Part shown: one piece after another, positions 14,226-59,981 of the stretch | How positions within the stretch are numbered: position 1 is the stretch's first letter | Layout: every line of letters begins with the position of its first letter | Source: a virus | Lineage: Duplodnaviria; Heunggongvirae; Uroviricota; Caudoviricetes | IMG/VR virus record: IMGVR_UViG_3300043425_000840 | Length of the DNA: 64,000 nt | Strand: one strand, 5' to 3' | The notes under the pieces: generated by a model | The model's database searches: none | Told to the model about the DNA's origin: nothing | Seen by the model: only the letters and a program-made list of their open reading frames with translations | Translations under genes and position numbers: made by a program

Positions 14226-14444
14226 TTATGCTCTTTGATTATATCCTCCGTTTATTCTTCTTGTTAGTTGATTCACAATGTCGTTATCGATTTCACGAGA
14301 AATCTGTTCAGAAAGTGCTCTTGATAATTCTGATACAATATCAGTATAATTGACACCTGTCTCTAATATTTCTGGTCTCCAATCTACACGTAACACTCTT
14401 GCCTTTTTAGAAATACCTCTAAAAAATTTAAATTCACTAATCAT
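14226..14444 (-). CDS. small protein with N-terminal FKFF motif (72 aa)
   Basis: Starts 'MISEFKFFRG', basic C-terminus; member of the FKFF-motif set. Confidence 0.5.
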   Translation of the reverse strand: MISEFKFFRGISKKARVLRVDWRPEILETGVNYTDIVSELSRALSEQISREIDNDIVNQLTRRINGGYNQRA

Positions 14445-14700
14445 TTCCTATCTCCCTTGCAAATAATTTAAATGTTGAACCTTCATTACTTGTAAATGTG
14501 ACATTACCATCAGGGCTCGGTGATAAACGAATGGTACATTCATTAGGACCTGTTGCAAATACCGTAGGTTCGTTGTCCCCGAACTGAAAACAAAATTCAA
14601 CATTTTGAGGATAATAAGCCGCTCGACTTAATGTTAAAATTTGTGTCGGTTCTAAATCAGAAAATAAACTATTATTATCCCTTAAAAATTTAAACGACAT
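14437..14700 (-). CDS. small protein with N-terminal FKFL motif (87 aa)
   Basis: Starts 'MSFKFLRDNN'; adjacent to the preceding FKFF protein. Confidence 0.5.
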   Translation of the reverse strand: MSFKFLRDNNSLFSDLEPTQILTLSRAAYYPQNVEFCFQFGDNEPTVFATGPNECTIRLSPSPDGNVTFTSNEGSTFKLFAREIGND

Positions 14701-15947
14701 TACTTAATTTTTGTCAACTTTGGTAAAACCAAATTATGTTCTTTAGGTTGAACGGTGTATGGTTTAATTAAGTCCATAAACACTTCTTTCATTTTTTCCA
14801 TTGAAAACTTTTCTTTATTTTCTTCTCTCAGTATTTCAGATTTTTCTTTGAATTTCTCATAATCATTTTTAACTAATCTTAACACTTCCGCAAATTCATT
14901 ATAATTTGCGGTAAACCATTTAGAACCCTTCAAAATAAAACTATCAGCGGCACTTTCGTGCACATCAGTCAATGAACCACCAATCATAATTGCTTTATCC
15001 ATAGGTAAGAAATCTTTATGTCCCGACCAATTAGATGCAACGATTGGTTTTCCCGTCATTGAAAATTCTAATAGAGGTCTACCGAAACCTTCACCCTTGG
15101 TGATTGATACCATTGATTTAATCTTAGGATGATTATACAATTCATTCATTTCTTGATTAGTCAATTCACCAAATAAAAGGTACACCGACGGCGGATTATC
15201 GTACCCCTTTGTTAATTCTTCAATCTTTCTTCTTACGTTCTCACGTTCTTTTATTGAAAAAGTTGCTGATGATGTTTTAAGTATTAGTGCGGGTTTATCC
15301 TCAACATCTTTGAATGATTCCATAAAACATTTAATCATCATTCCCACATCTTTTCTATCTTGTCCGAGAGAACCTTTTAACCAATGACCAACAAACAAGT
15401 AAGCAAAATCTTCTTTAATGTCCAAATCAATACCTTTGTACTCATTATTGAATGTAGAAATATCGACACCCTCAAATAGAACTTCGATTGGTTTTTGTAT
15501 TTTATGTTGTTTAATTAGTTTCCCTGTGTTGTTTTCATTTTCATTATAGACAGTTGATAACAACACTTCTTTTGAAAACTTTGATGTTGTAATAATTAAA
15601 TCCATCCTATTACAACCATCAACCCATTCTTTAGGTGCAACGGTTGTTTCAATTCCCGCAGTGATTCCAATGTTAAATTTACCTCTTCTGGTAAATTCAT
15701 TAGGTACTGTTACCTGAACGTATATATCTGATGTGATATTCATCGGATTAATTATATTAGATTCAATCCATCTATGAAACTGATTATCTTTTTCCAATGC
15801 GGTCATCGGAGTTGACCCCCACATACAACTATCTATCTTTATCTCAAACAAATCCATTTCGTATAGTGCTTGTAACAAATCTCTTGAATGTGCACCATAC
15901 CCACTTCTTGTTTTTACCGGTCCCCTAAATAATAAAAATGGTTTCAT
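14700..15947 (-). CDS. glycosyltransferase family 4 (GT-B, retaining type)
   Basis: 'GEGFGRPLLEFSMTGKPIVASNWSG' matches the GT4 EX7E motif region. Confidence 0.7.
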   Translation of the reverse strand: MKPFLLFRGPVKTRSGYGAHSRDLLQALYEMDLFEIKIDSCMWGSTPMTALEKDNQFHRWIESNIINPMNITSDIYVQVTVPNEFTRRGKFNIGITAGIETTVAPKEWVDGCNRMDLIITTSKFSKEVLLSTVYNENENNTGKLIKQHKIQKPIEVLFEGVDISTFNNEYKGIDLDIKEDFAYLFVGHWLKGSLGQDRKDVGMMIKCFMESFKDVEDKPALILKTSSATFSIKERENVRRKIEELTKGYDNPPSVYLLFGELTNQEMNELYNHPKIKSMVSITKGEGFGRPLLEFSMTGKPIVASNWSGHKDFLPMDKAIMIGGSLTDVHESAADSFILKGSKWFTANYNEFAEVLRLVKNDYEKFKEKSEILREENKEKFSMEKMKEVFMDLIKPYTVQPKEHNLVLPKLTKIK

Positions 15948-15948
15948 A

Positions 15949-17304
15949 TTATATTATCTTATATAAGTCAAATCTTTTTCTTGGTTTATAGTTTTCAAAA
16001 ACTCTTTCAATACCTTCAATCAATGAGTTATTCATAATGTCAGAAGATAAATTCTTAATCATAAATTCTCTACCCAACAAACCTCTTCTCTTTCTTTCTG
16101 GTCGACCCTGAGCATAAACTGTTGAAATAGTATTTGCAACTTCATCATCATTAACCCTATCATCAAAAATATATGGTGTAGGTACTGAACCGTTTAAATT
16201 AATTGCCGATGGCCAAATTGGGAAAGCCCATTCACCGTGTAATGTTGAACCGTGTGTCTTTCTATCGTGTAGAGTACCAAATGTTATGTAGTTATCGGCA
16301 CTATAATTAAATCCACATTGGTCTTGTAAACCACCAGTTACATTTACAATGATTGGTGTACCCGCCATTAATGATTCTGCAGTTGTTAAACCAAACCCTT
16401 CGTTATTTGCGATGTTGATTGTACAATCAACAAGATTATAAATCTCGTTTAATTTATCTTGTTCTAATTTCAACCCTGTAAACTTAACATCATAAGGACA
16501 TAACGCTTCAATTACCGCAGGTAAGTCAGTTCCGTTCTCATCCACAGCTGCAGTGTGCATTAATAATAAACATTTATCTGAATGTTCTTTTGGTAATTTA
16601 TCACAGAATAATTTATATGAATAAATCACATCAGATGGTTGTTTTCTTCTAATATTTCTGTTGTTATAGAATAACACAAAATCATATTCCTTATCACCAA
16701 AAATTAGTTTCTTGATGTCGTCACTAACATTATCTAAAGGTTTGAATACCTTTGGATTGATTCCGTGAGGTACGTAACTAATTTGCCAATCTTCCAATGG
16801 TTTATGTGTAACTTCATCAATCATTTTACCAACTCGATGAACAATACCATAAGTCTGTTTAGATATACAACCAATCCAATCACAACTCTCGTAGTAATCT
16901 CTATTATATTTTGGGTCAGGTAAATCGTCCCAAATATGGTAATATAATATTGGAACTTGTTGTCTTATTTCGTGTTCATTATCGTACAACCATTGCCAAT
17001 AATGTGGGTCTGTAAAGTGTAAGATAGCATCTGGTTTCTCAACCGCTAATAATGTTCTTAGAATATTAATATCACCATAACCGTGGTTAGGATATATTTT
17101 AAGGTTAGCATCTTCAATACCGGTTCTGTCTCTCACATCTTGATTTATATCTACTACTTTACCAAATTCAGGGTGTTGAATTGCAGCACCCAATTGTACC
17201 CAATCGTACTTGTGAATGGTACCCAATACAAGTTCTTTCGACATAGTAGATATACCTGATGTCATTCTCAAATCATCAGATAACAATAATATCTTTTTCT
17301 TCAT
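15949..17304 (-). CDS. glycosyltransferase family 4 (GT-B)
   Basis: 'NNEGFGLTTAESLMAGTPIIVNVTGGLQDQ' is an EX7E motif; N-terminal 'KKKILLLSDD'. Confidence 0.7.
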   Translation of the reverse strand: MKKKILLLSDDLRMTSGISTMSKELVLGTIHKYDWVQLGAAIQHPEFGKVVDINQDVRDRTGIEDANLKIYPNHGYGDINILRTLLAVEKPDAILHFTDPHYWQWLYDNEHEIRQQVPILYYHIWDDLPDPKYNRDYYESCDWIGCISKQTYGIVHRVGKMIDEVTHKPLEDWQISYVPHGINPKVFKPLDNVSDDIKKLIFGDKEYDFVLFYNNRNIRRKQPSDVIYSYKLFCDKLPKEHSDKCLLLMHTAAVDENGTDLPAVIEALCPYDVKFTGLKLEQDKLNEIYNLVDCTINIANNEGFGLTTAESLMAGTPIIVNVTGGLQDQCGFNYSADNYITFGTLHDRKTHGSTLHGEWAFPIWPSAINLNGSVPTPYIFDDRVNDDEVANTISTVYAQGRPERKRRGLLGREFMIKNLSSDIMNNSLIEGIERVFENYKPRKRFDLYKII

Positions 17305-17307
17305 TAA

Positions 17308-17505
17308 TTAAAACTTTGAACCACTGGATGCTAATCCATTATGATTGTCAATCTTGTCTTTGAAATCTTCGCTTTTTGTATATAAATCTAAAGACCTATT
17401 CACTAGTTTTTGTAGGTTAATTGAGCCGTCAATTGATTTAATTTTGAATTTTTTATAAACATCATCTAAAATGTTCACACTGGTTAATTTAACTTCAGCT
17501 TTCAT
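17308..17505 (-). CDS. hypothetical small protein (65 aa)
   Basis: ORF at the end of the minus-strand island. Confidence 0.4.
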   Translation of the reverse strand: MKAEVKLTSVNILDDVYKKFKIKSIDGSINLQKLVNRSLDLYTKSEDFKDKIDNHNGLASSGSKF

Positions 17506-17534
17506 ATTTGTATATAAATTTTTATATATTATAT

Positions 17535-17566
17535 AGATAAAAAATATCGGACAGAAGTCCGATATT
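17535..17566 (-). terminator. rho-independent terminator (minus strand)
   Basis: 'atatcggac agaa gtccgatat' is a 9-bp stem, followed on the minus strand by a TTTTTT run. Confidence 0.5.
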
Positions 17567-17573
17567 GTTAACT

Positions 17574-17762
17574 TTATTGAGGTTCCTCTGACGAATTAAT
17601 CTCTCTTAACTTGTTAGCAATTTCATTGATAAGAGTACTCTGTTCTTCAGTTACAGGACCTAATTCGGTAGATGTAGTTTCTTCCGAAAAATTTATTTGT
17701 ACTTCAACCGGTAGAGGTGTGTTTTGTGGTTGAACGTTTCTTTTTTTACATCCGCATCCCAT
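17574..17762 (-). CDS. small acidic protein with N-terminal 'MGCGCKKR' (62 aa)
   Basis: ORF; first gene of the minus-strand transcription unit. Confidence 0.4.
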   Translation of the reverse strand: MGCGCKKRNVQPQNTPLPVEVQINFSEETTSTELGPVTEEQSTLINEIANKLREINSSEEPQ

Positions 17763-17858
17763 ATTGTTTTCTTTTTATATAAATATTTTGGTTTATTGTT
17801 TTTTATTCACTATATTTTAATAAAATCTAACAAAGATTTATTTAAAAATCAAGTGAAT

Positions 17859-18551
17859 ATGAAAATAGGTGTGACAGGGTGTTCACATAGTTCGAAAAAT
17901 TACGGAGGTCAACCTTGGTGGTATCATATGGGTGAGACCTTAAATGCGGAAATTATTGATTCTTCATCAAGAGGAGGGTCCAATGAATTTAATATTGAGA
18001 AGGTTAAATTTATTATTGACAACAATCCTGATTTAGATTTATTTGTTTTTCAATTAACTCACCCGGCGAGAATTATGATGGGTGTGTCACATATTAAATC
18101 AGATGAGAGAGGACTTCACTCCCCAACAAATGTTAATGGAGTTAAGTATTTTAATTTCACTACAATGAGAAATGAAAAGGCGTTTGAAACTGAATTTAGT
18201 AATTGGTACGATTCTGAAAAAGTTTTAGATTTCATTTATCAACAATCAACGATTTCAACGTATAATCTTGAATATAAAATTCTACATACAATACTTCTAG
18301 TGTACCATATTTGTGAGTCATATGGTAAGAAAGTGGTATTTTTTAGTTGGTACACTGACATTCACGAATTGGCTAAAAAATCAGGATATTTGGAATTGAT
18401 AAAAAAAATACCTATACTTTATGGTACAGTCGATGACTTCACAAAAAACAACAATGTACCATCAATACCTAACGACTCACATTTTGGAAATGAATCACAA
18501 AAAATAATATTCGATAATTTCATATACCCACAACTTAAAAACTTAATTTAA
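17859..18551 (+). CDS. SGNH-like hydrolase paralogue (Cys variant); start moved to an internal Met
   Basis: 'MKIGVTGCSHSSKNYGG', 'SSSRGGSNEF', 'NDSHFGNESQKIIF' (DxH block V). The track ORF extends upstream into an AT-rich intergenic region, so the start is placed at 17859. Confidence 0.5.
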   Translation: MKIGVTGCSHSSKNYGGQPWWYHMGETLNAEIIDSSSRGGSNEFNIEKVKFIIDNNPDLDLFVFQLTHPARIMMGVSHIKSDERGLHSPTNVNGVKYFNFTTMRNEKAFETEFSNWYDSEKVLDFIYQQSTISTYNLEYKILHTILLVYHICESYGKKVVFFSWYTDIHELAKKSGYLELIKKIPILYGTVDDFTKNNNVPSIPNDSHFGNESQKIIFDNFIYPQLKNLI

Positions 18552-18552
18552 A

Positions 18553-19254
18553 ATGGAAAAAGACTTTCAACCGGTCAAAAGTGTTTACACATCTAACTTT
18601 GAAGCAATTAGAAACATAATGGATTTGTATAAAATCGAAAGATTCGATTTGGATTGTACCTATTCTAAAGGTAATTTTTGGAAAGACCTACCAGGACCAG
18701 TTTACAAAAGTGATTTATTTCCTGTAAATGAATCAGTTGTAGAGGCAAATTCTGAAAATCTTCCCTTCGAAGACAATTCAATGAAGAGTATTATGTACGA
18801 CCCACCGTTTGTGGTTGCTGGTTCATCTTACAAATCAAATAAAGAAGGTAGTTCGATTATTGCTAAAAGATTTGAGGGGTACACTACATATAACGACTTG
18901 AAAGTCAATTACTTCAACACACTTAAGGAACTATATAGAATCTGTGATAAAGGTGGATATGTGGTAATGAAATGTCAGGACACAGTATCGGGAGGTAAGA
19001 ATCACTTCACACACTGTTTGATTATGAATATGGCTTTACAGATTGGATTTTATCCAAGAGATATGTTTGTACTAACTTCTAATGTGAGAATCAATAGTTT
19101 TGGTACTAAATGGACTAAACAAGAACACGCTAGAAAATACCATAGTTACTTTTGGGTATTTGAAAAAGTAAAACCAAAAGTTAAGTACGATTTTATAAAT
19201 GCGGTTGATAGTTTTATCGAACAGGATTCTGTGGAGTCCCAAGATACATTTTAA
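18553..19254 (+). CDS. DNA methyltransferase (N6-adenine/N4-cytosine class, DPPF motif)
   Basis: 'ENLPFEDNSMKSIMYDPPF' matches the 'lp..sVDLI.tDPPY' motif IV region of amino-MTases. Confidence 0.55.
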   Translation: MEKDFQPVKSVYTSNFEAIRNIMDLYKIERFDLDCTYSKGNFWKDLPGPVYKSDLFPVNESVVEANSENLPFEDNSMKSIMYDPPFVVAGSSYKSNKEGSSIIAKRFEGYTTYNDLKVNYFNTLKELYRICDKGGYVVMKCQDTVSGGKNHFTHCLIMNMALQIGFYPRDMFVLTSNVRINSFGTKWTKQEHARKYHSYFWVFEKVKPKVKYDFINAVDSFIEQDSVESQDTF

Positions 19255-20423: not shown

Positions 20424-20424
20424 A

Positions 20425-20913: not shown

Positions 20914-21116
20914 TGAAAGAGCCAAGATATTTAACTGATTTTTTCATTTACAAAAAGAAACATCATTGGTTTATAATACCAACAATTGTTTTCTTTTATA
21001 ATAAAGAAACCTTTTTTGAGACCGGCATATCTACACCAGCGTATGGTCTATCATTTAGATGGTTAACATTTTTTATGGGAGTACAAATACAAAAAAATGC
21101 ATACTACAAAAAATAA
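20913..21116 (+). CDS. hypothetical small protein
   Basis: ORF; weak. Confidence 0.3.
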   Translation: MKEPRYLTDFFIYKKKHHWFIIPTIVFFYNKETFFETGISTPAYGLSFRWLTFFMGVQIQKNAYYKK

Positions 21117-21741
21117 ACTTTGGTGTTTTGGTGATAGCTACACTCAAAGATATGACCCAAAAGTTGATTGGGGTAAAAGTTATATCGATTACAAAGGTTA
21201 TTTACCAAAAGTCTATTGTGATTTTTTAGGTGAACAATTGGGGATTGAATGTGAGAACTTAGGGGTTGGTGGATATGATAATTATTCCATTTTTGAGACC
21301 TTGTGTAATAACGTACATAGGATTAAAGAAAATGATATTGTTATTATTGGTTGGTCGAGTGTGATTAGATTTAGACTTGCCGCTAAAGACGGCGATTGGG
21401 TGAAATTTGTACCAGGAACCGTTACAGATTATCACATCACTCACCACACCGATATGTCAAGAAATACGATTGATGAGATATTTGTTAATAGGGATAATCT
21501 AATTTATTATAAAGAAGTTAACAATTGGATTCATTTTATTAATCACACAATGAAGAAAAATAAAATAATTCATTGGACACCGTTTGATGACAATACTGAT
21601 TTAAATGTACACAAGTTGTTAAAACTTGAAACAATAAAAATGGAGAGTGGTAATATTCTCACCGATAATCATTATGGTGAGAATGCACATAAAACTTTAA
21701 CTAATATATTTTTTGAATTATTAAAAGATAAATTGATATGA
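21097..21741 (+). CDS. SGNH/GDSL-like hydrolase paralogue (Ser nucleophile)
   Basis: 'KLWCFGDSYTQRY', 'GVGGYDNYSIF', 'TDNHYGENAHKTL' (DxH). Confidence 0.55.
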   Translation: MHTTKNKLWCFGDSYTQRYDPKVDWGKSYIDYKGYLPKVYCDFLGEQLGIECENLGVGGYDNYSIFETLCNNVHRIKENDIVIIGWSSVIRFRLAAKDGDWVKFVPGTVTDYHITHHTDMSRNTIDEIFVNRDNLIYYKEVNNWIHFINHTMKKNKIIHWTPFDDNTDLNVHKLLKLETIKMESGNILTDNHYGENAHKTLTNIFFELLKDKLI

Positions 21742-27727: not shown

Positions 27728-28681
27728 ATGAAATACCTATCTGTTTGCAGTGGAATCGAAGCGGCTACCGTAGCTTGGTCACCACTTGGTTGGGAATGTA
27801 AAGGTGTATGTGACTTTGCAAAGTTCCCACAACAAGTTCTATCACATCACTACCCAAACACACCTTTATTTACTGACATTACTAAACTCAACACAAATGA
27901 AACGTACAAAAAAACAAAATTCGACTTATTGGTCGGAGGAACGCCTTGTCAATCTTTTTCCGATGCAGGACTCAACAAAGGAATGGATGATATCCGTGGT
28001 CAAATCGCCCTTAGCTATGGACAAATTCTTAAAGAAAAACGACCTAAGTGGTTCATTTGGGAAAATGTCGAAGGCGTTTTTAAAAGTCAACACAAAAAAG
28101 CCTTATGTCAAATCATCACCTCTTTCACAGGAGTTGACTTCAGACCTGAACACATCGAAAAACAAGGGGTTGTCCAAGGGGAAAATTACTCAATCGCTTA
28201 TAGGGTTTTCGACTCGCAATACTTCGGAGTTCCCCAACGACGCAAAAGAATCTATATTGTCGGATATCGTGGAAAAGACTGGAGAGTCCCATTCTCAGTA
28301 TTATTTGAAGAAGGATGTTTTGAAAGCGTTGAAGAAAAGAATAAACTCAAGAGGGATGAGTACACCAAAAATATTCTCGGACAAATTAAACTCGCTGGTA
28401 CGGTAACCAAATCCTACGCAAGAACATTGGTTGATGGGTTTGGTAAAGTATCTACCTCAAACTATTGGGTAGATGATAATGGTATCAGAACATTTACTGA
28501 AAGAGAACTAGAAAGATTACAAGGGTTTCCCGATGGTTATTTAGATTTTGAAATCAACGGAAAAAAACCTTCATATTCAAACGTGAAAGGTGCTGTGGGT
28601 AATTCAATGACAGTTAATGTTATGTATTGGATTGGTCAAAGAATAAATTTTATTCACAATTATTTGGAATCTTCAAAATAA
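27728..28681 (+). CDS. dcm: DNA (cytosine-5)-methyltransferase
   Basis: Motif I 'LSVCSGIEAATVAW', motif IV 'GGTPCQSFSDAG', motif VI 'FIWENVEGV', motif VIII 'QRRKRIYIVG'. Confidence 0.85.
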   Translation: MKYLSVCSGIEAATVAWSPLGWECKGVCDFAKFPQQVLSHHYPNTPLFTDITKLNTNETYKKTKFDLLVGGTPCQSFSDAGLNKGMDDIRGQIALSYGQILKEKRPKWFIWENVEGVFKSQHKKALCQIITSFTGVDFRPEHIEKQGVVQGENYSIAYRVFDSQYFGVPQRRKRIYIVGYRGKDWRVPFSVLFEEGCFESVEEKNKLKRDEYTKNILGQIKLAGTVTKSYARTLVDGFGKVSTSNYWVDDNGIRTFTERELERLQGFPDGYLDFEINGKKPSYSNVKGAVGNSMTVNVMYWIGQRINFIHNYLESSK

Positions 28682-28698
28682 TTTAATATATTTTTATT

Positions 28699-38888: not shown

Positions 38889-38937
38889 TTTGGAAATACG
38901 AAAATTATTCAATATATTTTAATAAAACACACTAACT

Positions 38938-46223: not shown

Positions 46224-46281
46224 CGGAATATCTTTTTTATAAAAAATACTAGATATTTTTTGGAATATTCAAAAACATTAT

Positions 46282-46289
46282 TATCTTTG
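46282..46289 (+). promoter_or_regulatory. Bacteroidetes-type -7 motif (TAnnTTTG) just upstream of 46294
   Basis: 'tatctttg' sits 4 nt before the ATG. Confidence 0.3.
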
Positions 46290-47957: not shown

Positions 47958-48710
47958 ATGAGTAAATTGTGGACATTTGGATGTAGTTTCACCGCAGAAT
48001 ATGATTTTACATCATATTTGAAACCCGGTCAAAGTGATGAATCTGAAAATAATAACATCAGATATAGAAATTACCGAGGTGGTGATATAAATGATGTGTG
48101 GCCCACAATTGTTGCAAGAGAATTAGGGTTAGAAAAAGAAAATATGGGGTACCCTGGTTTTTCTAACTACAGAATATTCAACAGATTTTCCGCAAACTGT
48201 CAAAGAATTCAAAAAGGTGATGTGGTAATTGTCGAATGGTCGAGAAAAGAACGATTCGATATTGTCAATAAAAATATGGGTAGACACCATCAAATGGTTT
48301 CTGTTATTCCATCAGAAGCACATAGCCACGTACAATATGATTTAAAAGTGATGCAACAAATATTGGTTAACAGAATTAACCCTGTTTGGTGTGATGAGAT
48401 ATATTCCTTTATGAAGTTAATGAAGGAATTAAGTCTTGCTAAGCAATTCGAATTATATTTTTGGTCGGCAGATAAACAAATAATCAACAAAGAAGATAAC
48501 TCATTTAAGTACAAATACAATTGTTTAGTGCCTGAAGCAAATACGGATATGACTAAGTTTCTCCGTGAATATGGTGCACAAAGTTTTCACGAAGAGACTA
48601 ATAGAATTCTACCGGATGATGAACATTATGGTGAAGTTGGTCATAGAGTAATGTCAGAAATGTTTCTAAGAGACATAAACAGATATAGAAACGGATATTA
48701 CAATGAATAA
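47958..48710 (+). CDS. SGNH-like hydrolase paralogue (Cys variant), tandem array member 1
   Basis: 'MSKLWTFGCSFTAEY', 'GYPGFSNYRIF', 'DDEHYGEVGHRVMSEMF' (DxxH). Confidence 0.55.
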   Translation: MSKLWTFGCSFTAEYDFTSYLKPGQSDESENNNIRYRNYRGGDINDVWPTIVARELGLEKENMGYPGFSNYRIFNRFSANCQRIQKGDVVIVEWSRKERFDIVNKNMGRHHQMVSVIPSEAHSHVQYDLKVMQQILVNRINPVWCDEIYSFMKLMKELSLAKQFELYFWSADKQIINKEDNSFKYKYNCLVPEANTDMTKFLREYGAQSFHEETNRILPDDEHYGEVGHRVMSEMFLRDINRYRNGYYNE

Positions 48711-49449
48711 GTTATGGACATTTGGTTGTAGTTACACCGCAGAATATCATCCACTGAGTTCTATGAATGGTGAGAAAAACAACTATATGTTATATCGAGA
48801 TTGGTTAGGTGGAACGTTACCTGAAACTTGGCCACATAGATTGGGTAAGATGTTGGGTATGGAGGTTGAAAATAAAGGAGTGGGAGGTAGTTCTAATGAC
48901 CATATTTTCGGTGCGTTCTGTGACAATTGTGAAATGATTAATGAGGGTGACATTGTGGTAATTGGTTGGACGCAACTCGCAAGATTTTGGATTAGCAGTT
49001 ATGATGAAAAACAACTACCAAAATTAATCTCAGTACTCCCAAACCACACAAAAAATAGTGACGTCAACTCAACCCATATGTCAACGGAGACGTTAGATTT
49101 CCTTTTAGTTGAGAGAACTAATCCAATATATACAAGAGAAATTTACGATAGACAAAATTTAATAGAAGAACTCTCAAAACACAAAGGTTTTGAGATATTT
49201 TTTTGGTCAAGTGATAGTAAAATTATCTACGATGAACCAAAAGAATTTAAAAATAAAAAAAAGTACCTTTGTTCAGATTCTGTTGATGGTGTATTAGCAC
49301 ACCTAATTAGAAAAAAGGGTGCAAAAACCGTTGAAATGGAAACAAAGGGTAAAATACCCGATTTACATTTTGGTGAAATTGGACATCGGGTTCAGGCGGA
49401 AGTTTTTTACAAAGAAATCTCCACCAAAATAAAAAAGAGTTTATTATGA
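48703..49449 (+). CDS. SGNH-like hydrolase paralogue (Cys variant), tandem array member 2
   Basis: 'MNKLWTFGCSYTAEY', 'GVGGSSNDHIF', 'DLHFGEIGHRVQAEVF'. Confidence 0.55.
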   Translation: MNKLWTFGCSYTAEYHPLSSMNGEKNNYMLYRDWLGGTLPETWPHRLGKMLGMEVENKGVGGSSNDHIFGAFCDNCEMINEGDIVVIGWTQLARFWISSYDEKQLPKLISVLPNHTKNSDVNSTHMSTETLDFLLVERTNPIYTREIYDRQNLIEELSKHKGFEIFFWSSDSKIIYDEPKEFKNKKKYLCSDSVDGVLAHLIRKKGAKTVEMETKGKIPDLHFGEIGHRVQAEVFYKEISTKIKKSLL

Positions 49450-50051
49450 TTAGAGTAATGTGGGTATTTGGTGATGGTTTCAGTAATAGTAGTTGGACAA
49501 CTTTATTAGGTGAGAAATTAGGATACCAAGTTAAAAACTTATCAAAAGATAAAACTTGCAACTATCAAATCTTTGATGATTTCTGTGGTGTATGTGATTT
49601 GATTCATAGTGATGATATTGTTATTATTGGTTGGGGTAATGTTTGTAATTTTAGAACACCAATCAATGATGAGTTTATTTGTTACAGCCCAAATGATTTA
49701 GGTGACGAACACATTGACTCAACATATATTGAGAATGTGGTTAGAGATAGGTTATCTGAAAAATGGTGTGAACAGATTTATTACTATGAAAATATTTTAG
49801 ATGAACTTGCGAAATCGAAGAGATATAATTTGTTTTTTTGGTCAAGTGATGAGGATAGGTTGATATATCCCGCAAGACCATCATTTAAAGCAAAAAGAAG
49901 TTACTTATGTAATGAATCAACAACTTGTTTGGTTAAGTATTTTGAAGAGAAAGGTGCAACTGTAATTGATAATAAGTTCGATGAGGTTGGAAATGAAATA
50001 GTTGCAGATAAATTTTATAATGAAATAAAAACGAGAATACATTCTTTATAA
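49446..50051 (+). CDS. SGNH-like paralogue with Gly at the nucleophile position (probably inactive), tandem array member 3
   Basis: 'VMWVFGDGFSNSSW'; the C-terminus lacks a DxxH His ('DEVGNEIVADKF'). Confidence 0.5.
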   Translation: MIRVMWVFGDGFSNSSWTTLLGEKLGYQVKNLSKDKTCNYQIFDDFCGVCDLIHSDDIVIIGWGNVCNFRTPINDEFICYSPNDLGDEHIDSTYIENVVRDRLSEKWCEQIYYYENILDELAKSKRYNLFFWSSDEDRLIYPARPSFKAKRSYLCNESTTCLVKYFEEKGATVIDNKFDEVGNEIVADKFYNEIKTRIHSL

Positions 50052-50746
50052 TGAAACTGTGGATATTCGGAGATTCCTTTAGTCAGAAGTTCAGTGACTT
50101 TGACCAAAAACTTTACGACCCTATTGATTATAGGGTTCGATACCACATTTGGAAAGGTTATTCACCGAAGTGTTATGGTGAGATTATATCGGATAAATTG
50201 GAATGTGATTTAGAGATATTGGCATCGGCAGGAAACTCGAATGATGAAATATTTCATAGTTTTATTGAGGTGATGGACCAAATCCGACCTGGTGACATTG
50301 TGATAGTCAATTGGACATATCCTAATAGGTTTAGAATTGCGGATGATAATAACAAGTTTGAAAAGGTTATGATTCAGGCGGGTTGTAAATCACCCAACAG
50401 GTTCGTGTCCGAAAAAAGTTTGGAGGAGATTGGTGTAAATCGTAATTCCTCAAGTATATATTATAAGGAGGTTTCTAACTACACCAAAATAATAAAAAAG
50501 GTTTGTGGTGAAGATATCTTCTCAATATTTTGGTATTTTTCGAATATGAATATTCAAAGAAAATATGACGAAAATATCATTAGTTTTTTTGAAAATGTGA
50601 TTCCATTACACGAATATGAAACACTCACAATTGAGACATTGGGTGTGATGGAGGATGGTCACTATTCAGAGGACGGACATAAGGATTTGGCTAACGACTT
50701 ATATAAAATTATAGAAATATGGACTCAAGCAAAACAGATAAAGTAG
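50051..50746 (+). CDS. SGNH/GDSL-like hydrolase paralogue (Ser nucleophile), tandem array member 4
   Basis: 'MKLWIFGDSFSQKF', 'ASAGNSNDEIF', 'EDGHYSEDGHKDLANDLY'. Confidence 0.55.
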   Translation: MKLWIFGDSFSQKFSDFDQKLYDPIDYRVRYHIWKGYSPKCYGEIISDKLECDLEILASAGNSNDEIFHSFIEVMDQIRPGDIVIVNWTYPNRFRIADDNNKFEKVMIQAGCKSPNRFVSEKSLEEIGVNRNSSSIYYKEVSNYTKIIKKVCGEDIFSIFWYFSNMNIQRKYDENIISFFENVIPLHEYETLTIETLGVMEDGHYSEDGHKDLANDLYKIIEIWTQAKQIK

Positions 50747-50891
50747 CAAGAATCATTGCACTTATTATCGCAGTAGGTATCGGTGGTTTAGTATTTTGGA
50801 CCGGTGGTACTATACTTTACTACATTATAAAATATTCATTCTTTTCATAGTATCTTTTGGAATTTTAAATTTTATTTCTTATATTTTTTCT

Positions 50892-51221
50892 ATGAGAAGT
50901 TTTAAATTTTTTTCAGGGAGAAGTACCGGATTAGATTTAGACTCTTCTCCAAGTTGGATATATGACACTAATGTAAATTTAGATGGGTTAGACCATTTCA
51001 TAGTTACCGAACAATACAGAGGTATCTATGACTTCCTAAATCATTTTCCCGATAACTTTGTTGTCGTTGTGAAATCAATAACCTGTAATGGTAGAACACA
51101 TACAGGTACTAGTGAATATCCTGATGGTTGGGGTTTTGATATTACTTCAGATTTATTGACCATTGAACATTATAGATTCACGGAAAACGACGACACTTAT
51201 GACGATACTAATCACTCCTGA
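50892..51221 (+). CDS. FKFF-motif protein (109 aa); start moved to an internal Met of track ORF 50796
   Basis: Starts 'MRSFKFFSGRS'. The longer track ORF overlaps a possible 43-aa TM ORF (50718-50849) and the upstream gene. Confidence 0.4.
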   Translation: MRSFKFFSGRSTGLDLDSSPSWIYDTNVNLDGLDHFIVTEQYRGIYDFLNHFPDNFVVVVKSITCNGRTHTGTSEYPDGWGFDITSDLLTIEHYRFTENDDTYDDTNHS

Positions 51222-54889: not shown

Positions 54890-55249
54890 ATGAATCGAAT
54901 TGCCACATTACCTTATGATGAGTTAAAATTTTTTTGGGTGAATAGTCATTATGACATTCATCTCTCAGGATTGTGTAAAATAGGTGACACCATTTTTTAT
55001 TTTAAAACAATTAACAGTAATGAATACTACTACGATGAAACCGAGTTAATGTGTGATGTTTATATGTTATCGTTTAGTGAAGAAATAAAATGGAGATTAA
55101 GAAAGTTTTTCTTTGAACAAATGGTAGGTTATCATTGGTCTTATCCACAGAAAAAAGAATGGGCTCGATTTTATTATAGACGACCGGTATGGTTGAGTAA
55201 ATTACTATTCAAACTCTATTATAAAATTAAAAAAATTTATGGTAAGTGA
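54890..55249 (+). CDS. hypothetical protein (119 aa)
   Basis: ORF. Confidence 0.45.
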   Translation: MNRIATLPYDELKFFWVNSHYDIHLSGLCKIGDTIFYFKTINSNEYYYDETELMCDVYMLSFSEEIKWRLRKFFFEQMVGYHWSYPQKKEWARFYYRRPVWLSKLLFKLYYKIKKIYGK

Positions 55250-55469
55250 ATTTAAATTCTTTCAGAAGAACAAGTATAAAGATAGGTGTCGATTGGAAGT
55301 TGGTTCTTCATTTATCTTGCGTGGATATTATTGTACGGTTACACAAATGTTACCCGATTTTTTTAGATGTGTCATCCAAGAAGATGGTAGAGAATTTGTA
55401 ATGTACTATAACAATTATTTACAAACACCGTCTGCTGCTGGTAGACAATTAAACAGGAGGTATCGTTAA
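55239..55469 (+). CDS. small protein with N-terminal FKFF motif (76 aa)
   Basis: Starts 'MVSEFKFFQKNKYK'; the DNA there is the palindrome 'gaatttaaattc'. Confidence 0.45.
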   Translation: MVSEFKFFQKNKYKDRCRLEVGSSFILRGYYCTVTQMLPDFFRCVIQEDGREFVMYYNNYLQTPSAAGRQLNRRYR

Positions 55470-55510
55470 AAGTTTTTATTATAATATTTTTTTAGTATAT
55501 TTTATATACG

Positions 55511-55795
55511 ATGAAAAAAATTATTTTATTACTAATGTTATTGGGAGTGATAACATCAGAAGCTAAACCTAAGTATCGTATCGAAACGTGGGTATATAAT
55601 GGAACGACATATTACTTACCCCAAGAAAGGATATGGTATAGAACAAACTACTTCTACCTACCATTTAAGGTGTGGAGGTCAGGAGCATATCCATTCCAAC
55701 ACAAAGAACAAGCATTGGATATTATCCAAAATTGGAAAGACTCACATCAAGAAAAAATTGATTACAGAAAGTCAAAATATTATTTGGTAGATTGA
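55511..55795 (+). CDS. small secreted protein (signal peptide)
   Basis: 'MKKIILLLMLLGVITSEA'. Confidence 0.5.
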   Translation: MKKIILLLMLLGVITSEAKPKYRIETWVYNGTTYYLPQERIWYRTNYFYLPFKVWRSGAYPFQHKEQALDIIQNWKDSHQEKIDYRKSKYYLVD

Positions 55796-55959
55796 TGAGA
55801 AATAGACAAGATGAGTTAATTTTGAGGGTTGAGAAACTTGAGAGAAGGTTGAGAGAATTGGAGGATAGGTTAAGGGATGATACAACTAGGTCAAGAGTTG
55901 CCGAACTTGAGAGGAGGGTGAGTAGGGCTATTGAACAAAAAAATGTTACCGCAGAATAA
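55795..55959 (+). CDS. small coiled-coil protein (54 aa), below the track cutoff
   Basis: Manual translation: MRNRQDELILRVEKLERRLRELEDRLRDDTTRSRVAELERRVSRAIEQKNVTAE. Confidence 0.3.
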   Translation: MRNRQDELILRVEKLERRLRELEDRLRDDTTRSRVAELERRVSRAIEQKNVTAE

Positions 55960-55965
55960 TAGTTT

Positions 55966-56397
55966 ATGATTAAACCGTTCAAATTTTTTAAGGGTTATGT
56001 TTATAGTGATGAGTACACCTTTCAGGACACCCCTGAGGGCCATATGAGTAGAAGAATGTTATATCACACAAACCGTGGTCAATATGATAGACTTCGTCAT
56101 CCCAATAATGAGATGGAACGATACTTTTATGATAGGAACTTACGTCACGATAGATTAACGGAGGAGAGACGAGCGGAAGTTACAAGACGGATTAATGAAG
56201 GAAGAGATTTAAATGATAACCCAATAAAATTATTCCAAACAACAACGGTAACAAAGGTGAATCCAAAATGGTGGATGAAGATTAAAATTGTTCTTCAAGA
56301 AAGTTGGTTATATGACCCAATTGGTGTGGTTGTTGTGAGTGCATTGACAACCATTGTTACAATTATCGGAATTGCAAAATTATTAAATGCTTGGTAA
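55966..56397 (+). CDS. protein with N-terminal FKFF motif and C-terminal TM anchor (143 aa)
   Basis: Starts 'MIKPFKFFKGYVYS'; C-terminal 'IGVVVVSALTTIVTIIGIAKLL'. Confidence 0.5.
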   Translation: MIKPFKFFKGYVYSDEYTFQDTPEGHMSRRMLYHTNRGQYDRLRHPNNEMERYFYDRNLRHDRLTEERRAEVTRRINEGRDLNDNPIKLFQTTTVTKVNPKWWMKIKIVLQESWLYDPIGVVVVSALTTIVTIIGIAKLLNAW

Positions 56398-56870
56398 TGA
56401 ATATATTTTACTTGGATAAGAACCCCACAAGATGTGCAAGATACCACAATGACAAACACGTTGTTAAGATGATACTTGAAACCGCACAACTATTGTGTGG
56501 TGCACATTGGGTAACCGGTTCTGAAGCACCATACAAACTATCTCATAAGAATCATCCTTGTGCTATATGGACAAGAACTAATACTGAAAACTATAGATGG
56601 TTATGTATGTTGGGTATTCAATTGTGTTGGGAGTACAAACGTAGATATCTTAAAACACACAAATCATATGACATTATTCTATGGTGTTGTGATAACCCAC
56701 CAAACATACCAGAAGGTAAGTTTATCGAACCACCACTAGCGATGCCTAATGAGTACAAAGAAATGTGTCACGTCCAATCCTACAGAAACTATTACAACTT
56801 TACCAAGAGTTCATTTTCAAAGTGGAAGAATGGTGAGATTCCCGAATGGTTTATTCCAAATTCAGTATAA
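56391..56870 (+). CDS. hypothetical protein (159 aa), conserved-looking His/Cys-rich
   Basis: ORF; I could not place a family. Confidence 0.5.
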   Translation: MVMNIFYLDKNPTRCARYHNDKHVVKMILETAQLLCGAHWVTGSEAPYKLSHKNHPCAIWTRTNTENYRWLCMLGIQLCWEYKRRYLKTHKSYDIILWCCDNPPNIPEGKFIEPPLAMPNEYKEMCHVQSYRNYYNFTKSSFSKWKNGEIPEWFIPNSV

Positions 56871-56928
56871 ATACTGAGCATTTTATTGATTTTTTTGTAT
56901 ATTTTTGTAATATAAAAAGAAATAACTT

Positions 56929-57276
56929 ATGAAAATTAAAAAACGTGGTTTTTTAAATCCGTGGAGAACAATAGCCATTTGGTATATACCGATGTGTACA
57001 TATATTATACACAAGTTGATGGGGACCATTGTGCCCGATAAAGAATGGTATTGGTGGTTATGTATTTCTTTAGCACTATTAGGATGGTTAACACTCAACT
57101 TCAAAATTGTTAAAAATGACGATTGGGGTGGATTGAGTAATGAAGAGTTGATTGGTGATGATGAAATCCCTGGCTCGCATAAAAATAAATGTGAACATCC
57201 TTTAAGAAGAAGAGAAGGTTATCGTGAGGGTGTTTATAAATGTTGGGAATGTGGTAAAATAATATTTGAAGATTAA
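56929..57276 (+). CDS. membrane protein with C-terminal zinc-ribbon-like CxxC
   Basis: Two TM segments; 'CEHPLRRREGYREGVYKCWECG'. Confidence 0.45.
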   Translation: MKIKKRGFLNPWRTIAIWYIPMCTYIIHKLMGTIVPDKEWYWWLCISLALLGWLTLNFKIVKNDDWGGLSNEELIGDDEIPGSHKNKCEHPLRRREGYREGVYKCWECGKIIFED

Positions 57277-57287
57277 AACATAACAAT

Positions 57288-57473
57288 ATGTTACAAAATA
57301 CATTTAGAAAAACAATCATAGACAAACGTCTTGAAGAATTATCTGATAAGGTAAGAAGAGGAACACCAATCTCAATGAGTGAAGCGATTGAAGTAGTAGA
57401 ATATCAAGAGATGTTAAAGAAAAACAAAATTACTTTAAAAGATAGATTTGTTAATTTTTTTAAAATTAAATAA
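57288..57473 (+). CDS. hypothetical small protein
   Basis: ORF. Confidence 0.4.
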   Translation: MLQNTFRKTIIDKRLEELSDKVRRGTPISMSEAIEVVEYQEMLKKNKITLKDRFVNFFKIK

Positions 57474-57474
57474 T

Positions 57475-57732
57475 ATGACACAGATTTGGAAATATAGAGT
57501 TGATGTAGGTACTATAATGATGCCGAAAGGAGCAAAGATATTAACCGTTCAAATGCAAAATGACATCCCTCATATGTGGGCGATTGTTAATGTTGATGCT
57601 GAGTTAGAAGAGAGAGTATTTGAAATTCACGGTACAGGTCATAACATTAGAAATATTGATGAATATGAGTACATTGGTACATATATCGATAATCCTTTTG
57701 TTTGGCATCTATTTGAATTAATTAAAAAATAA
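57475..57732 (+). CDS. hypothetical protein (internal start of track ORF 57448)
   Basis: 'MTQIWKYRVDV...' starts 2 nt after the upstream stop. Confidence 0.45.
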   Translation: MTQIWKYRVDVGTIMMPKGAKILTVQMQNDIPHMWAIVNVDAELEERVFEIHGTGHNIRNIDEYEYIGTYIDNPFVWHLFELIKK

Positions 57733-57736
57733 TAAT

Positions 57737-58048
57737 ATGAAACTAGGAGAATTTATTAAGAACTTCAGTCATAACAATATTGTTAGATTGGTACACAAAG
57801 ATAAGGGTGGACATAAACTTGTATTGGACTATTGGGATGATGTGTCGATGGACCACGAAATATTAAAAGGTAAAGGTAAAAACCGCCACTACATAGATAA
57901 TGAAGTGTTGGGTTTAACCGGAATCTATTTCCAACCGGGAGAAACCCGATATCGTGAAGCAATTAACATTGTTATTGAGGAGTTGGAGAACCAACCAATG
58001 ATTGAAGAGACCGTGGATGAAATTGTTTACGAAGCCGAAGCAAATTAA
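57737..58048 (+). CDS. hypothetical protein (103 aa)
   Basis: ORF. Confidence 0.45.
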   Translation: MKLGEFIKNFSHNNIVRLVHKDKGGHKLVLDYWDDVSMDHEILKGKGKNRHYIDNEVLGLTGIYFQPGETRYREAINIVIEELENQPMIEETVDEIVYEAEAN

Positions 58049-58058
58049 AATTTATTTT

Positions 58059-58253
58059 ATGTTAGAAGTTTTAAAAGTTATATTAATATTCTTATTGAGT
58101 GTATTAATATCATTTGGTTTTTGGTACCTAATCTTTTGGTTCCTAACCGGAGAATCGGATTTGTTTGGTTGGTTTTGGGGTGTGAAATTACTTTACTTAG
58201 TTTTTGGATTTACAACTTTAAGTTCAATACTTGAATTTTTAATGGACATATGA
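58059..58253 (+). CDS. small membrane protein (internal start of track ORF 58002)
   Basis: 'MLEVLKVILIFLLSVLISFGFWYLIFWFL'. Confidence 0.4.
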   Translation: MLEVLKVILIFLLSVLISFGFWYLIFWFLTGESDLFGWFWGVKLLYLVFGFTTLSSILEFLMDI

Positions 58254-58435
58254 AAAATTATATTAAAAGATTAAATTGGTCCGGATTTGTTCTTGTGTTA
58301 GCATTAACAGGTGCGGCATCATTTTCAAGAGACCAAGACCCATCACTACTCGTAAGTTTTTATGTATGGATGATATTAGGGTTGCCAATTTCTTTATTGG
58401 TTCTTTTTATCGGGATTAAACCAAAAGATAAATAA
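58250..58435 (+). CDS. small membrane protein
   Basis: Two TM segments. Confidence 0.4.
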   Translation: MKNYIKRLNWSGFVLVLALTGAASFSRDQDPSLLVSFYVWMILGLPISLLVLFIGIKPKDK

Positions 58436-58555
58436 GTTATGAAAAAAGAAAAAACATATTTTGATGGCATTATGGTAGGATTTACAATAACCGCTGTAAT
58501 TTTTTCAATCTTATTAGGTATTGTGATTACGATGTTAACACAATAATAAAAATAT

Positions 58556-58653
58556 AGTCAGGTGGCGGAATTGGTAACGATTACGTTAATGGACGTTAGG
58601 CAGAGTCGCTCTTGGTAAGCCCTATCCTACAGGTTCGAATCCTGTCCTGACTA
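58556..58653 (+). tRNA. tRNA-like gene (~98 nt, long-variable-arm size class); anticodon not assignable by eye
   Basis: Perfect 7-bp acceptor stem (agtcagg/cctgact), U8, canonical T-arm 'acagg TTCGAAT cctgt', and a D-loop 'aattggtaa' resembling type-II (Leu/Ser/Tyr) tRNAs. A clean D-stem and 5-bp anticodon stem could not be drawn: the best anticodon arm has 1 mismatch and an 8-nt loop. Confidence 0.5.
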
Positions 58654-58669
58654 CAAAAACAAATAATAT

Positions 58670-59002
58670 ATGAACAAAGAATTTATACCATACGAACAAG
58701 CATTAGAACTTAAAGAATTAGGTTTTAATGAAGAATGCTTTGGATTTTATACATTGGAAGGTTGCTACTTTCCAAATACAACTGAACTAAATTCACTTAG
58801 TTATGCTTGTGCTTCACCACTCTACCAACAAGCATTTAGATGGTTTAGGGAGAAGTATGATTTGTTTATAAGCATAACTCATTATGAAAATGGTTATTCT
58901 ATAAATGATTTAAGAAGATTTGATACATACGAAGAAGTAGAGAATGCTTGTATAGATAAACTTATAGAACTTGCTAAACAACAAGACAATGGGAATATCT
59001 GA
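58670..59002 (+). CDS. hypothetical protein (110 aa)
   Basis: ORF immediately downstream of the tRNA. Confidence 0.45.
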   Translation: MNKEFIPYEQALELKELGFNEECFGFYTLEGCYFPNTTELNSLSYACASPLYQQAFRWFREKYDLFISITHYENGYSINDLRRFDTYEEVENACIDKLIELAKQQDNGNI

Positions 59003-59333
59003 CTTCATTGAGGAACTAAACCATACGGACGAATACATTCACCACATATATTCCAAGGGTGGATGTTATAAGTTTCATTTGCTCCTATCCAAGATGTATA
59101 AAGGGTGTATTCCTTATACAAATGGGAATCATATCATCACCAGATACAAAGGTAAGTACTATGACATATATGGTGAGGTGGATAATCAAGATGGTTTCAG
59201 GAAACTAAAACCCGAGGAAGTTCCAATGGTATCCAAATGGAGTTTCCATATGAATAATCTATTGGTTCTTAAGGATTGTCCCCATTGTGATGAACCTATT
59301 ATAATAAAGAATCTAACAGATGAGACAGTTTAA
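58971..59333 (+). CDS. hypothetical protein (120 aa)
   Basis: ORF. Confidence 0.45.
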   Translation: MLNNKTMGISDFIEELNHTDEYIHHIYSKGGCYKFHLLLSKMYKGCIPYTNGNHIITRYKGKYYDIYGEVDNQDGFRKLKPEEVPMVSKWSFHMNNLLVLKDCPHCDEPIIIKNLTDETV

Positions 59334-59553
59334 GTTCTTTCAAAAGGAGATAAAGAATGAATCATATACTCTTTATTATATGAGGGATAATATTCCATTG
59401 GATATTGTTGAGTGTGGGGAAATTGGGACATATAGGGAAGGATTCGATGCGGGGGTTGGTAATAATAGGAATTGTCCATACACGGATGAACTAAGGTCGG
59501 AGATATGGAATAGAGGATATTATACAGGAAACTATGCAAATACATTAAGATGA
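59320..59553 (+). CDS. small protein with N-terminal FKFF motif (77 aa)
   Basis: Starts 'MRQFKFFQKEIKNE'. Confidence 0.45.
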   Translation: MRQFKFFQKEIKNESYTLYYMRDNIPLDIVECGEIGTYREGFDAGVGNNRNCPYTDELRSEIWNRGYYTGNYANTLR

Positions 59554-59981
59554 AAGAATTTAAGTTCTTAAGAAAGAATGACCATTATGTTCTAAGTCTT
59601 CCGTTAATAAGAAGAATGGCGGGTAGAACTGTCTATAATGAATTATTTGATGTAGTTCCGGCAGTACCGAGAACAAGGGAATGTGCGGTAATAGCATCAT
59701 CCATACAGGATTTCAATTATTGGAGAAATGGAACGTTTGATAGGAGTCACGCTTTTATTGTAACCAATAGAGATTTCCTACATACCAATGGAGTTAGTGG
59801 TATTCCCACAAGATACAGAGCAATAACACGGATTGATGATTGTTATGGACTCACCTTTGATGATTATATAACAACGGATAGAATTGAGGATATATTATTG
59901 AGTGGTTATGAAGATACCATAGACTATATTAGACAATTGATTGTTGAAGTTAACTTACATACAAGAGATGAAGACATTTAA
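59550..59981 (+). CDS. protein with N-terminal FKFL motif (143 aa)
   Basis: Starts 'MKEFKFLRKNDHY'; adjacent to the preceding FKFF protein. Confidence 0.5.
   Translation: MKEFKFLRKNDHYVLSLPLIRRMAGRTVYNELFDVVPAVPRTRECAVIASSIQDFNYWRNGTFDRSHAFIVTNRDFLHTNGVSGIPTRYRAITRIDDCYGLTFDDYITTDRIEDILLSGYEDTIDYIRQLIVEVNLHTRDEDI

Follow-up and report, generated by a model that had tools for sequence, protein, structure and literature searches.

The 64,000-nucleotide stretch of viral DNA analyzed here (IMG/VR record IMGVR_UViG_3300043425_000840, called the window below) encodes a set of small proteins that resemble one another only in a short N-terminal peptide, M-x(1-4)-F-K-F-[FL], which we refer to as the tag. 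The recurrence of FKF[FL] at these N termini is real and far above chance. The explanation we favor, to which we assign a probability of about 0.55, is that the tag works as a short linear motif, a modular docking peptide at the N terminus that binds one shared partner, the existence of which we infer. An invariant Phe-Lys-Phe hook would bring all tagged proteins to this common partner, and small accessory proteins of more than 30 unrelated families would have acquired the tag by recombination.

Seven tagged open reading frames (ORFs) had been named in a preliminary description of the window, and all seven are present with the coordinates and N termini given there. An eighth copy, overlooked at that time, lies in an ORF that starts at 59968. 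The tagged genes and one associated promoter-like site are as follows.

14437 to 14700, minus strand: tagged gene of 87 amino acids (aa), MSFKFLRD..., first of a conserved adjacent pair in a sugar/glycosyltransferase cluster
14226 to 14444, minus strand: tagged gene of 72 aa, MISEFKFFRG..., with a cargo that reproduces two parts of the T4-type major capsid protein, the E-loop return strand and the spine helix (PF07068, E = 4.8e-4)
50856 to 50887, plus strand: promoter-like site TTTGGAATTTTAAATTTTATTTCTTATATTTT of the Bacteroidota type, ending 4 nt before the ATG at 50892
50892 to 51221, plus strand: tagged gene of 109 aa, MRSFKFFSG..., first gene behind the promoter-like site
55239 to 55469, plus strand: tagged gene of 76 aa, MVSEFKFFQK..., which holds the window's sole GAATTTAAATTC and belongs to cluster 2, with 7 members in relatives
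55966 to 56397, plus strand: tagged gene of 143 aa, MIKPFKFFKG..., a predicted tail-anchored membrane protein (transmembrane [TM] helix at about residues 119-137)
59320 to 59553, plus strand: tagged gene of 77 aa, MRQFKFFQK..., with a cargo weakly like ribosome modulation factor (RMF; PF04957, E = 7e-4, under the curated cut-off)
59550 to 59981, plus strand: tagged gene of 143 aa, MKEFKFLRK..., with 118 homologues
59968 to 60045, plus strand: remnant ORF of 25 codons, MKTFKFLYDKLGSKNGPNSEVIIFC followed by a stop, the eighth tag copy, its first 14 nt shared with the 3' end of the 59550 gene

The adjacency of several copies that had been pointed out also holds, with 14437 and 14226 overlapping by 8 nt, 59320 and 59550 overlapping by 4 nt, and two small ORFs lying between 55239 and 55966. 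The same is true of the C-terminal TM anchor, which belongs to the 55966 protein, and of the dissimilarity outside the tag, the seven proteins falling into seven different clusters. We infer that the 59968 remnant is a decayed tagged gene, which would fit turnover in arrays. Although the mechanical ORF of the 50892 gene could alternatively begin at a TTG at 50796, the ATG at 50892 is supported as the start by the promoter-like site that ends at 50887 and by the N termini of 12 aligned homologues, all of which open with M/V-[RK]-x-FKF[FL] (one has a longer called N terminus). Among the 118 homologues of the 59550 protein, 107 have the exact motif at the N terminus, and the others have FKLL or a different or truncated N terminus. 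Directly upstream of the tagged pair at 14226-14700, a group-1 glycosyltransferase (14700-15947, minus strand) opens with MKPFLLFRGPV, close to MKPFKFFRG. This N terminus is identical in a 297-kb relative (L072) and is probably just the first Rossmann strand.

Chance does not account for the number of N-terminal copies. The six-frame translation of the window contains 13 matches to FKF[FL]. An ATG stands no more than four codons away from 8 of them, and the remaining 5 are about the number predicted from composition. In a simple gene call (118 genes, 20,356 residues), 7 genes open with M-x(1-3)-FKF[FL] against 0.016 expected (Poisson P of about 6e-17), and no internal copy of FKF[FL] was found in these residues. 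The comparison with shuffled sequences that had been proposed for this signal was run with 20,000 composition shuffles, which gave a mean of 0.024 N-terminal copies and a maximum of 2.

Codon usage indicates the level at which the tag is maintained. For this we used a comparison set of 106 distinct tagged genes from the window and its relatives, the products of which have the consensus M-(I)-K-P-F-K-F-F-Q-[GK]. The first Phe is conserved in 100% of these proteins, the Lys in 96%, the second Phe in 97%, and the following Phe or Leu in 100%, and the residues flanking the tag are usually basic or polar. The first Phe codon is TTY in 106/106 genes, the Lys codon is AAR except for AGA (Arg) in 4, and the third residue is encoded by TTY in 103, while the fourth residue draws on TTY, TTR, and CTN codons alike. 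TTT shares of 72% and 60% and an AAA share of 71% in the tag match the genome backgrounds of 69% and 71.5%. Among the copies in the window, the DNA differences are confined to third codon positions, in agreement with the preliminary description, and upstream of position -10 the 106 genes show no nucleotide information content. Because the variation is three-periodic, in frame, and conservative, selection can be placed on the protein, and by this codon evidence the tag is under peptide-level selection.

Of the original interpretation, the shared N-terminal tag, the unrelated cargo, and the protein-level conservation have stood, whereas the alternative of a DNA palindrome or operator has not. 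The palindrome GAATTTAAATTC had been placed on two copies; it was found on only one (55248-55259), and the 14226 copy reads GAATTTAAATTT. The DNA at the tag sites, considered as a possible operator or promoter, has no frame-independent nucleotide conservation and nothing conserved upstream. An RNA operator or slippery sequence was likewise rejected, given the three-periodic synonymous variation and the lack of any slippery heptamer in register with the frame.

The majority of tagged genes overlap the preceding gene or directly adjoin it; 21 of the 106 have an ATGA overlap and 19 a 14-nt overlap in which the upstream stop is the TAA inside TTT-AAR. The 59320 gene has such a 14-nt overlap, the stop of its upstream gene being the TAA within TTT-AAG. 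This arrangement is relevant to a translation-level explanation, in which the first codons or the nascent peptide would tune initiation, re-initiation, or early elongation, or in which the site would act as a DNA or RNA operator. The frequent overlaps, the 19 stops inside TTT-AAR, the lack of Shine-Dalgarno sequences, and the leaderless appearance of some operon-first genes would all suit such an effect. The tag is, however, equally conserved in non-overlapping genes, from which we conclude that the overlap is a by-product of the tag; furthermore, most genes of the same operons do not carry it, and its three-periodic variation at background codon usage excludes a nucleic-acid motif. We consider a translation-level effect very improbable. 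The overlaps also leave a trace on protein ends: array proteins (in L015, L012, L007, and L008, and in the window at 59320-59333 and 59968-59981) often end in ...NETI, ...ETI, or ...ENI because their last codons overlap the ATG-AAA-CCA-TTT-AA of the next gene, so that the next tag dictates the previous C terminus.

The relatives of this phage show the scale of the phenomenon. Loci around homologues of the 55966 gene, the family of which is the largest cluster (16 members), contain 3 to 16 tagged genes each per 11 to 20 kb, with further tagged genes downstream of these homologues, and a 20.5-kb stretch of the 335-kb contig IMGVR_UViG_3300042391_000634 has 21 tagged genes among 49 called, including a consecutive overlapping run. 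After trimming of the N terminus, the 106 proteins formed 34 blastp clusters, two of which were judged to be false positives, leaving at least 32. Profile-profile comparison (hhalign) of the 20 clusters with two or more members identified 2 related pairs out of 190. Searches of the cargos with Pfam and PHROGs gave weak matches to Gp23 and RMF and nothing else at E ≤ 0.01, and Foldseek searches of the PDB with models of the 59550 and 50892 proteins returned nothing at E ≤ 0.001. An RMF-like motif (GYxxG...CPY...W..GW) recurs in several tagged cargos, namely that of 59320-59553 and those of clusters 11, 14, 15, and 32 in relatives. Six related contigs (L001, L002, L003, L005, L009, and L010) break within or beside tagged arrays, which fits population-level hypervariability.

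Where families could be aligned, the proteins share a layout of tag, linker, and domain: three aligned families each conserve the FKF residues, followed by an indel-rich linker. The 47 aligned sequences of the 59550 family show no variation at F4 and K5 and more than 90% conservation at F6, with about 40 indel-rich residues between the tag and a conserved domain. The AlphaFold model agrees: residues 1-39 have a predicted local distance difference test (pLDDT) score below 50, whereas an alpha/beta domain at 43-140 is modeled with confidence. All three of F4, K5, and F6 are invariant in the 50892 family, where the linker ahead of the domain is acidic and rich in indels; here residues 1-4 and 8-13 are modeled with pLDDT below 50, and a folded beta-rich domain follows. 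Across all families, positions +4 to +10 after the tag are 70% polar, 23% basic, and 20% hydrophobic. This composition speaks against the classical secretion tag that had been suggested as one option, since no hydrophobic h-region follows the tag; twin-arginine and lipobox features of Tat and lipoprotein signals were not found there either. A strong TM helix is present in one cluster only, that of 55966, and because it forms a C-terminal tail anchor, the tag of this protein would lie in the cytoplasm.

Common descent would offer a different account, in which the tagged proteins are diverged paralogues of one small protein that kept its N-terminal strand for folding or oligomerization. Tandem arrays do suggest duplication, and FKFF-x-G of the 14226 family might form the opening strand of an E-loop hairpin like that of the capsid, as capsid proteins read YLDF[KR]YG at this place and divergent family members read FKFG, FKLG, and FKYF. 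Residue 6 in the 50892 model also forms a weak beta-bridge with the domain, a detail that counts against a docking peptide and leaves room for an intramolecular role of the tag in some families. Yet 188 of the 190 profile pairs are unrelated, the 59550 and 50892 models differ in the order of their secondary structures, the linkers vary in length and are modeled with low confidence, and the core domain of the 14437 protein exists elsewhere with no tag. A single diverged paralogue family was accordingly rejected on the blastp clustering, the hhalign comparison, and the two models, and we regard common descent as improbable.

The 14437 family makes the separation of tag and cargo most visible. 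Across its 42 related loci, the lineage members that preserve the N terminus open with M-x-FK[FL][FL], and distant homologues of the core domain (L114 to L116), sited in a T4-type replication module, have an unrelated N terminus and no tag. Conversely, longer N-terminal modules recur on different cargos: FKFF.G.VYSDEYT is found on the 55966 family, on members of the 59550 family (P0010), and on an RMF-like family, and FKFFEGR.KRLYHY and FKFL[TS]DNDDD are distributed likewise. From both observations we conclude that the tag has moved between genes by 5'-end recombination, and that it is separable from its cargo. With at least 32 cargo clusters in relatives, FKF on variable linkers, and a cargo domain that has tagless homologues, the idea of an N-terminal tag on unrelated cargo is much stronger than when it was proposed from the window.

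The window itself has a GC content of 32% and contains T4-type genes for a tail fiber, thymidylate synthase, RNA ligase 1, endonuclease VII, and a DenV-like glycosylase, and its genes have no Shine-Dalgarno sequences upstream. No close relatives were found among GenBank or cultured phages by blastn and tblastn. Related contigs from IMG/VR and the Joint Genome Institute (JGI) reach 316 to 335 kb, and Flavobacterium phage immuto is among the best cultured-phage capsid-protein matches to the 14226-family segment. The source is an uncultured T4-type giant phage lineage, with contigs to about 335 kb and a host presumably among the Bacteroidota.

Within the sequences sampled, the tag is lineage specific. 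When all of IMG/VR was searched with a 24-nt degenerate pattern for the MIKPFKFF variant, 12 stretches matched, 10 on lineage contigs already identified and 2 on contigs not inspected; the bacterial and archaeal genomes of GTDB (596 Gb) yielded 36, almost all of them short or out-of-frame chance ORFs. N-terminal occurrences number 126 in 251 kb of lineage loci versus 1 in 988 kb of immuto-like head-module loci, and the 62 kb scanned of phage immuto contain no tagged gene starts. Because the sampled related phages lack the tag and MIKPFKFF does not open real bacterial genes, its reader is more likely to be phage encoded than a conserved host factor, and the strict invariance of the tag favors this as well. 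Literature searches for "FKFF" together with "phage" found nothing, and searches on conserved N-terminal motifs, giant-phage capsid-targeting sequences, and Bacteroidota giant phages found nothing comparable; a 2025 "moraphage" paper on large Bacteroidota phages, which may not cover this lineage, mentions no such motif.

The only hint to where the tag might act comes from two families with capsid-like cargo, 14226 and 59550. The 14226 family has 52 representatives at 50% identity, of which 51 are 62 to 142 aa long and one is a 2141-aa outlier; nearly all open with M-x-x-FKFF-x-G, and the C terminus ...RRINGG...NRA is conserved. In tblastn searches, the core of one member (P0168) was 57 to 62% identical over about 48 aa to the T4-type major capsid proteins of Flavobacterium phage immuto, Microcystis phage Mel-JY01, and LR756508, the segment matched being the E-loop return strand and spine helix. 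Relatives of the 59550 protein (P0084 and P0031) have a post-tag linker, LPIARRGAGRTIAQDLVPVQPLGPP, that resembles the capsid N-arm LPLVRKVFAQIASKDFVSVQPMNLPSG. The tag of 59550 relatives directly precedes the N-arm-like LPIARRGAGRTIAQDLVPVQP, and given the likeness of linker and N-arm, it stands at the position of the capsid propeptide. The N-arm-like segment corresponds to the Gol peptide region of T4 gp23. One protein, P0198, fuses both capsid-like segments, the 14226 type and the N-arm-like type. The capsid-like Pfam matches lie under the curated cut-offs, and only in the 14226 family are the identities seen by tblastn convincing. In function, such capsid-like mini-proteins could be assembly modulators or decoys for capsid-sensing defenses.

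The T4 capsid-targeting precedent and the capsid-derived cargos make the assembling prohead the first guess for the reader of the tag. The tag would then be an uncleaved functional analogue of the T4 capsid-targeting sequence (CTS), by which diverse effectors would be loaded and delivered together with the DNA. This idea is favored by the T4-type character of the phage, by the capsid-protein fragments in two tagged families, and by the lineage specificity of the tag. Several observations weigh against it. No conserved Glu and no L/I-x-E prohead-protease site is found at +4 to +13 in the 106 proteins, where the commonest residues after the tag are Q/R/T, then G/K/N, then N/P/Y. The largest tagged cluster consists of predicted tail-anchored membrane proteins, and the cargos are on average neutral to acidic, whereas T4 internal proteins are DNA associated. 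The apparent timing of expression is also unfavorable: tagged operons stand behind host-type promoters and among early-type functions (DenV-like glycosylase, thymidylate synthase, and RNA ligase), and the T4 late-promoter motif TATAAATA, which may not be the consensus of this lineage, is present within 100 nt upstream of 0/106 tagged genes. Taken together, the prohead is a tentative and rather doubtful candidate for the partner.

Intergenic sites of the form TTTG-N17-21-TAnnTTT[GT], which is the Bacteroidota sigma-A promoter type, head tagged-gene operons, and -7 boxes of host type occur upstream of tagged genes at twice the expected rate. A promoter class with TTTGGAATAT...TAnnTTTG heads operons in relatives as well. 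In the fuller form TTTGGAATAT(A/T)C(C/T)A(A/G)AA...TAnnTTTG, it was observed in the window at 28663-28694, 46259-46289, 50856-50887, and 38889-38920 and in intergenic regions of L008 and L015. The class has an extended -33 region that is palindromic in part (TTTGGAATATTCCAAA), and this suggests that a regulator site overlaps the promoter. Many sites of this class end 4 to 5 nt before an ATG, implying leaderless or near-leaderless mRNAs, and the 50892 mRNA may be leaderless in this way. These features point to pre-late expression of the tagged genes, although the T4 motif TATAAATA need not equal the late promoter of this lineage. The regions upstream of immuto-like capsid genes supplied no late-promoter consensus to transfer, and only immuto-like phages were found among the more than 600 matches in a capsid-protein search of IMG/VR. 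A motif that may be the lineage's late promoter, AGTATAAT (or AGTATAAATA), lies 7 to 11 nt upstream of the tail-fiber gene 5248, gene 10406, and the endonuclease VII-like gene 61804 and is absent upstream of tagged genes.

5231 to 5237, 10393 to 10399, and 61788 to 61794 (also 56865 to 56873): AGTATAAT/AGTATAAATA sites

Under the main rival to a docking peptide, a host AAA+ protease or chaperone would use the tag as its handle (ClpX, a latent ClpS N-degron, or DnaK/trigger factor), which would make the tagged proteins short-lived early products or would recruit or titrate chaperones. Here, F-K-F fits the hydrophobic-basic-hydrophobic core of the ClpX N-motif-1 class, which Flynn and colleagues reportedly described in 2003 with examples such as lambda O and Dps; the residue preceding the core, however, is P, E, D, or S and not T or a hydrophobic residue. 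Aromatic residues flanked by basic ones are also the binding pattern preferred by DnaK, trigger factor, and SecB. The extreme N-terminal position followed by a flexible polar linker is what unfoldases need for engagement, the operon context looks early, and a tail-anchored protein facing the cytoplasm would be compatible with such a handle. Known degrons, by contrast, are loose, and the strict conservation of F-K-F (100%, 96%, and 97%) over more than 30 families suggests one specific pocket. The distribution of the tag is a further difficulty, as the MIKPFKFF variant is found in no other IMG/VR phage group and the sampled related Flavobacterium-phage loci have no tagged starts. A ClpS N-degron in particular would require an unknown processing step, since Met and one to four further residues precede the Phe in 106/106 proteins. 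On balance, we judge a protease or chaperone handle unlikely.

Still somewhat less likely, in our view, is that the tag binds another host or phage hub, such as the sliding clamp, RNA polymerase, the ribosome, a modification enzyme, or a phage compartment or export route. The general layout of tag, linker, and cargo would permit this, and some cargos, such as the weakly RMF-like domains, may act on central machinery. There is also a parallel in the T4 family, where the polymerase, gp33, and gp55 bind the clamp via aromatic terminal peptides. In our own comparison, though, the tag was unlike the known docking consensus sequences for clamp, single-stranded-DNA-binding protein (SSB), or RNA polymerase, and an export route is opposed by the missing hydrophobic core of a signal peptide.

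The docking-peptide reading can be drawn out further. A phage-encoded receptor would read the Phe-Lys-Phe hook, and accessory or effector proteins of more than 30 families would all be sent to a single place, either the prohead interior or an unrecognized machine, with cargos gained by 5'-end recombination and some of them copied from the capsid as assembly modulators or decoys. Sorting of this extent would be without a known counterpart among phages. We hold this more specific scenario to be short of an even bet.

Among known systems, the T4 CTS is the nearest in principle. The diverse T4 internal proteins have only this sequence in common (PMC3012670), and the tag resembles the CTS of IPI-III in being a short peptide at the extreme N terminus and the sole shared part of diverse, fast-evolving phage accessory proteins (PMC3012670). 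Like the CTS, the tag is a conserved stretch of about 10 aa that opens phage proteins with nothing else in common, and here, too, the phage is of the T4 type and the genes lie in variable loci. Of the T4 CTS, MKTYQEFIAE, only M, K, and an aromatic residue align with the tag by eye. The likeness in sequence stops at this M-K-x-aromatic pattern, and the tag differs in having no prohead-protease site after it, in covering dozens of families rather than a handful, in lying in early-looking operons, and in including one membrane protein. The principle has a T4 precedent, from which the tag departs in sequence, scale, and apparent timing and in having no cleavage site.

Other sorting peptides are more distant. 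Encapsulin shells share the HK97 fold with phage capsids, and a short terminal peptide on a flexible linker sends unrelated cargo to one shell. Unlike the tag, however, encapsulin cargo-loading and microcompartment peptides are usually C-terminal (GSL type) or are 18-residue amphipathic helices. In oomycete RxLR, Plasmodium PEXEL, and MIX-type type VI secretion system (T6SS) effectors, a short N-terminal motif directs unrelated, fast-diversifying cargo to one trafficking step, but these motifs serve secretion by eukaryotic pathogens or bacteria and stand after a signal peptide or inside a larger domain. ClpX N-motifs and bacterial N-degrons share with the tag a hydrophobic-basic-hydrophobic core at the N terminus followed by an unstructured segment; the tag is far stricter, does not have Phe as its first residue, and is confined to one lineage.

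Should the tag prove to be a sorting signal, eight residues would mark the whole accessory and effector repertoire of a lineage and make it findable by sequence in genomes and metagenomes. With the prohead as reader, the T4 capsid-targeting principle, known for a handful of proteins, would extend to an environmental giant phage with dozens of targeted families, and the tag would be a natural, very short encapsidation signal for protein delivery. With a protease or chaperone as reader, this would be the first phage to program the turnover or folding of its whole early proteome by a common degron. Either way, the arrays show phage gene building by recombination of a fixed N-terminal module onto new domains.

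Additional features of the window and its surroundings were noted. Rfam predicted a 98-nt tRNA at 58556-58653 (plus strand, 35.2 bits) that was missed by ARAGORN; a long variable arm or an intron may be present in it. Beside this tRNA and partly overlapping it, a stretch at about 58632-58847 gave the only blastn matches of the window, to the huge uncultured phages LR756500, LR756502, and LR756504. The 10 kb upstream of the window start (L117) contain no head genes and instead encode auxiliary metabolic functions, among them a carbamoyltransferase, a GT25 glycosyltransferase, three 2OG-Fe(II) oxygenases, and tryptophan-halogenase-like and APS-kinase-like proteins. Finally, seven paralogues in the window open with M-x-K-L-W-x-F-G-D/C-S-(F/Y/W), like the first block of SGNH/GDSL hydrolases, and four of the seven stand in tandem just upstream of the tagged gene 50892.

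599 to 1420, 17859 to 18551, 21097 to 21741, 47958 to 48710, 48703 to 49449, 49446 to 50051, and 50051 to 50746, plus strand: SGNH/GDSL-like paralogues, with weak Pfam matches to DUF6071 and Lipase_GDSL_2

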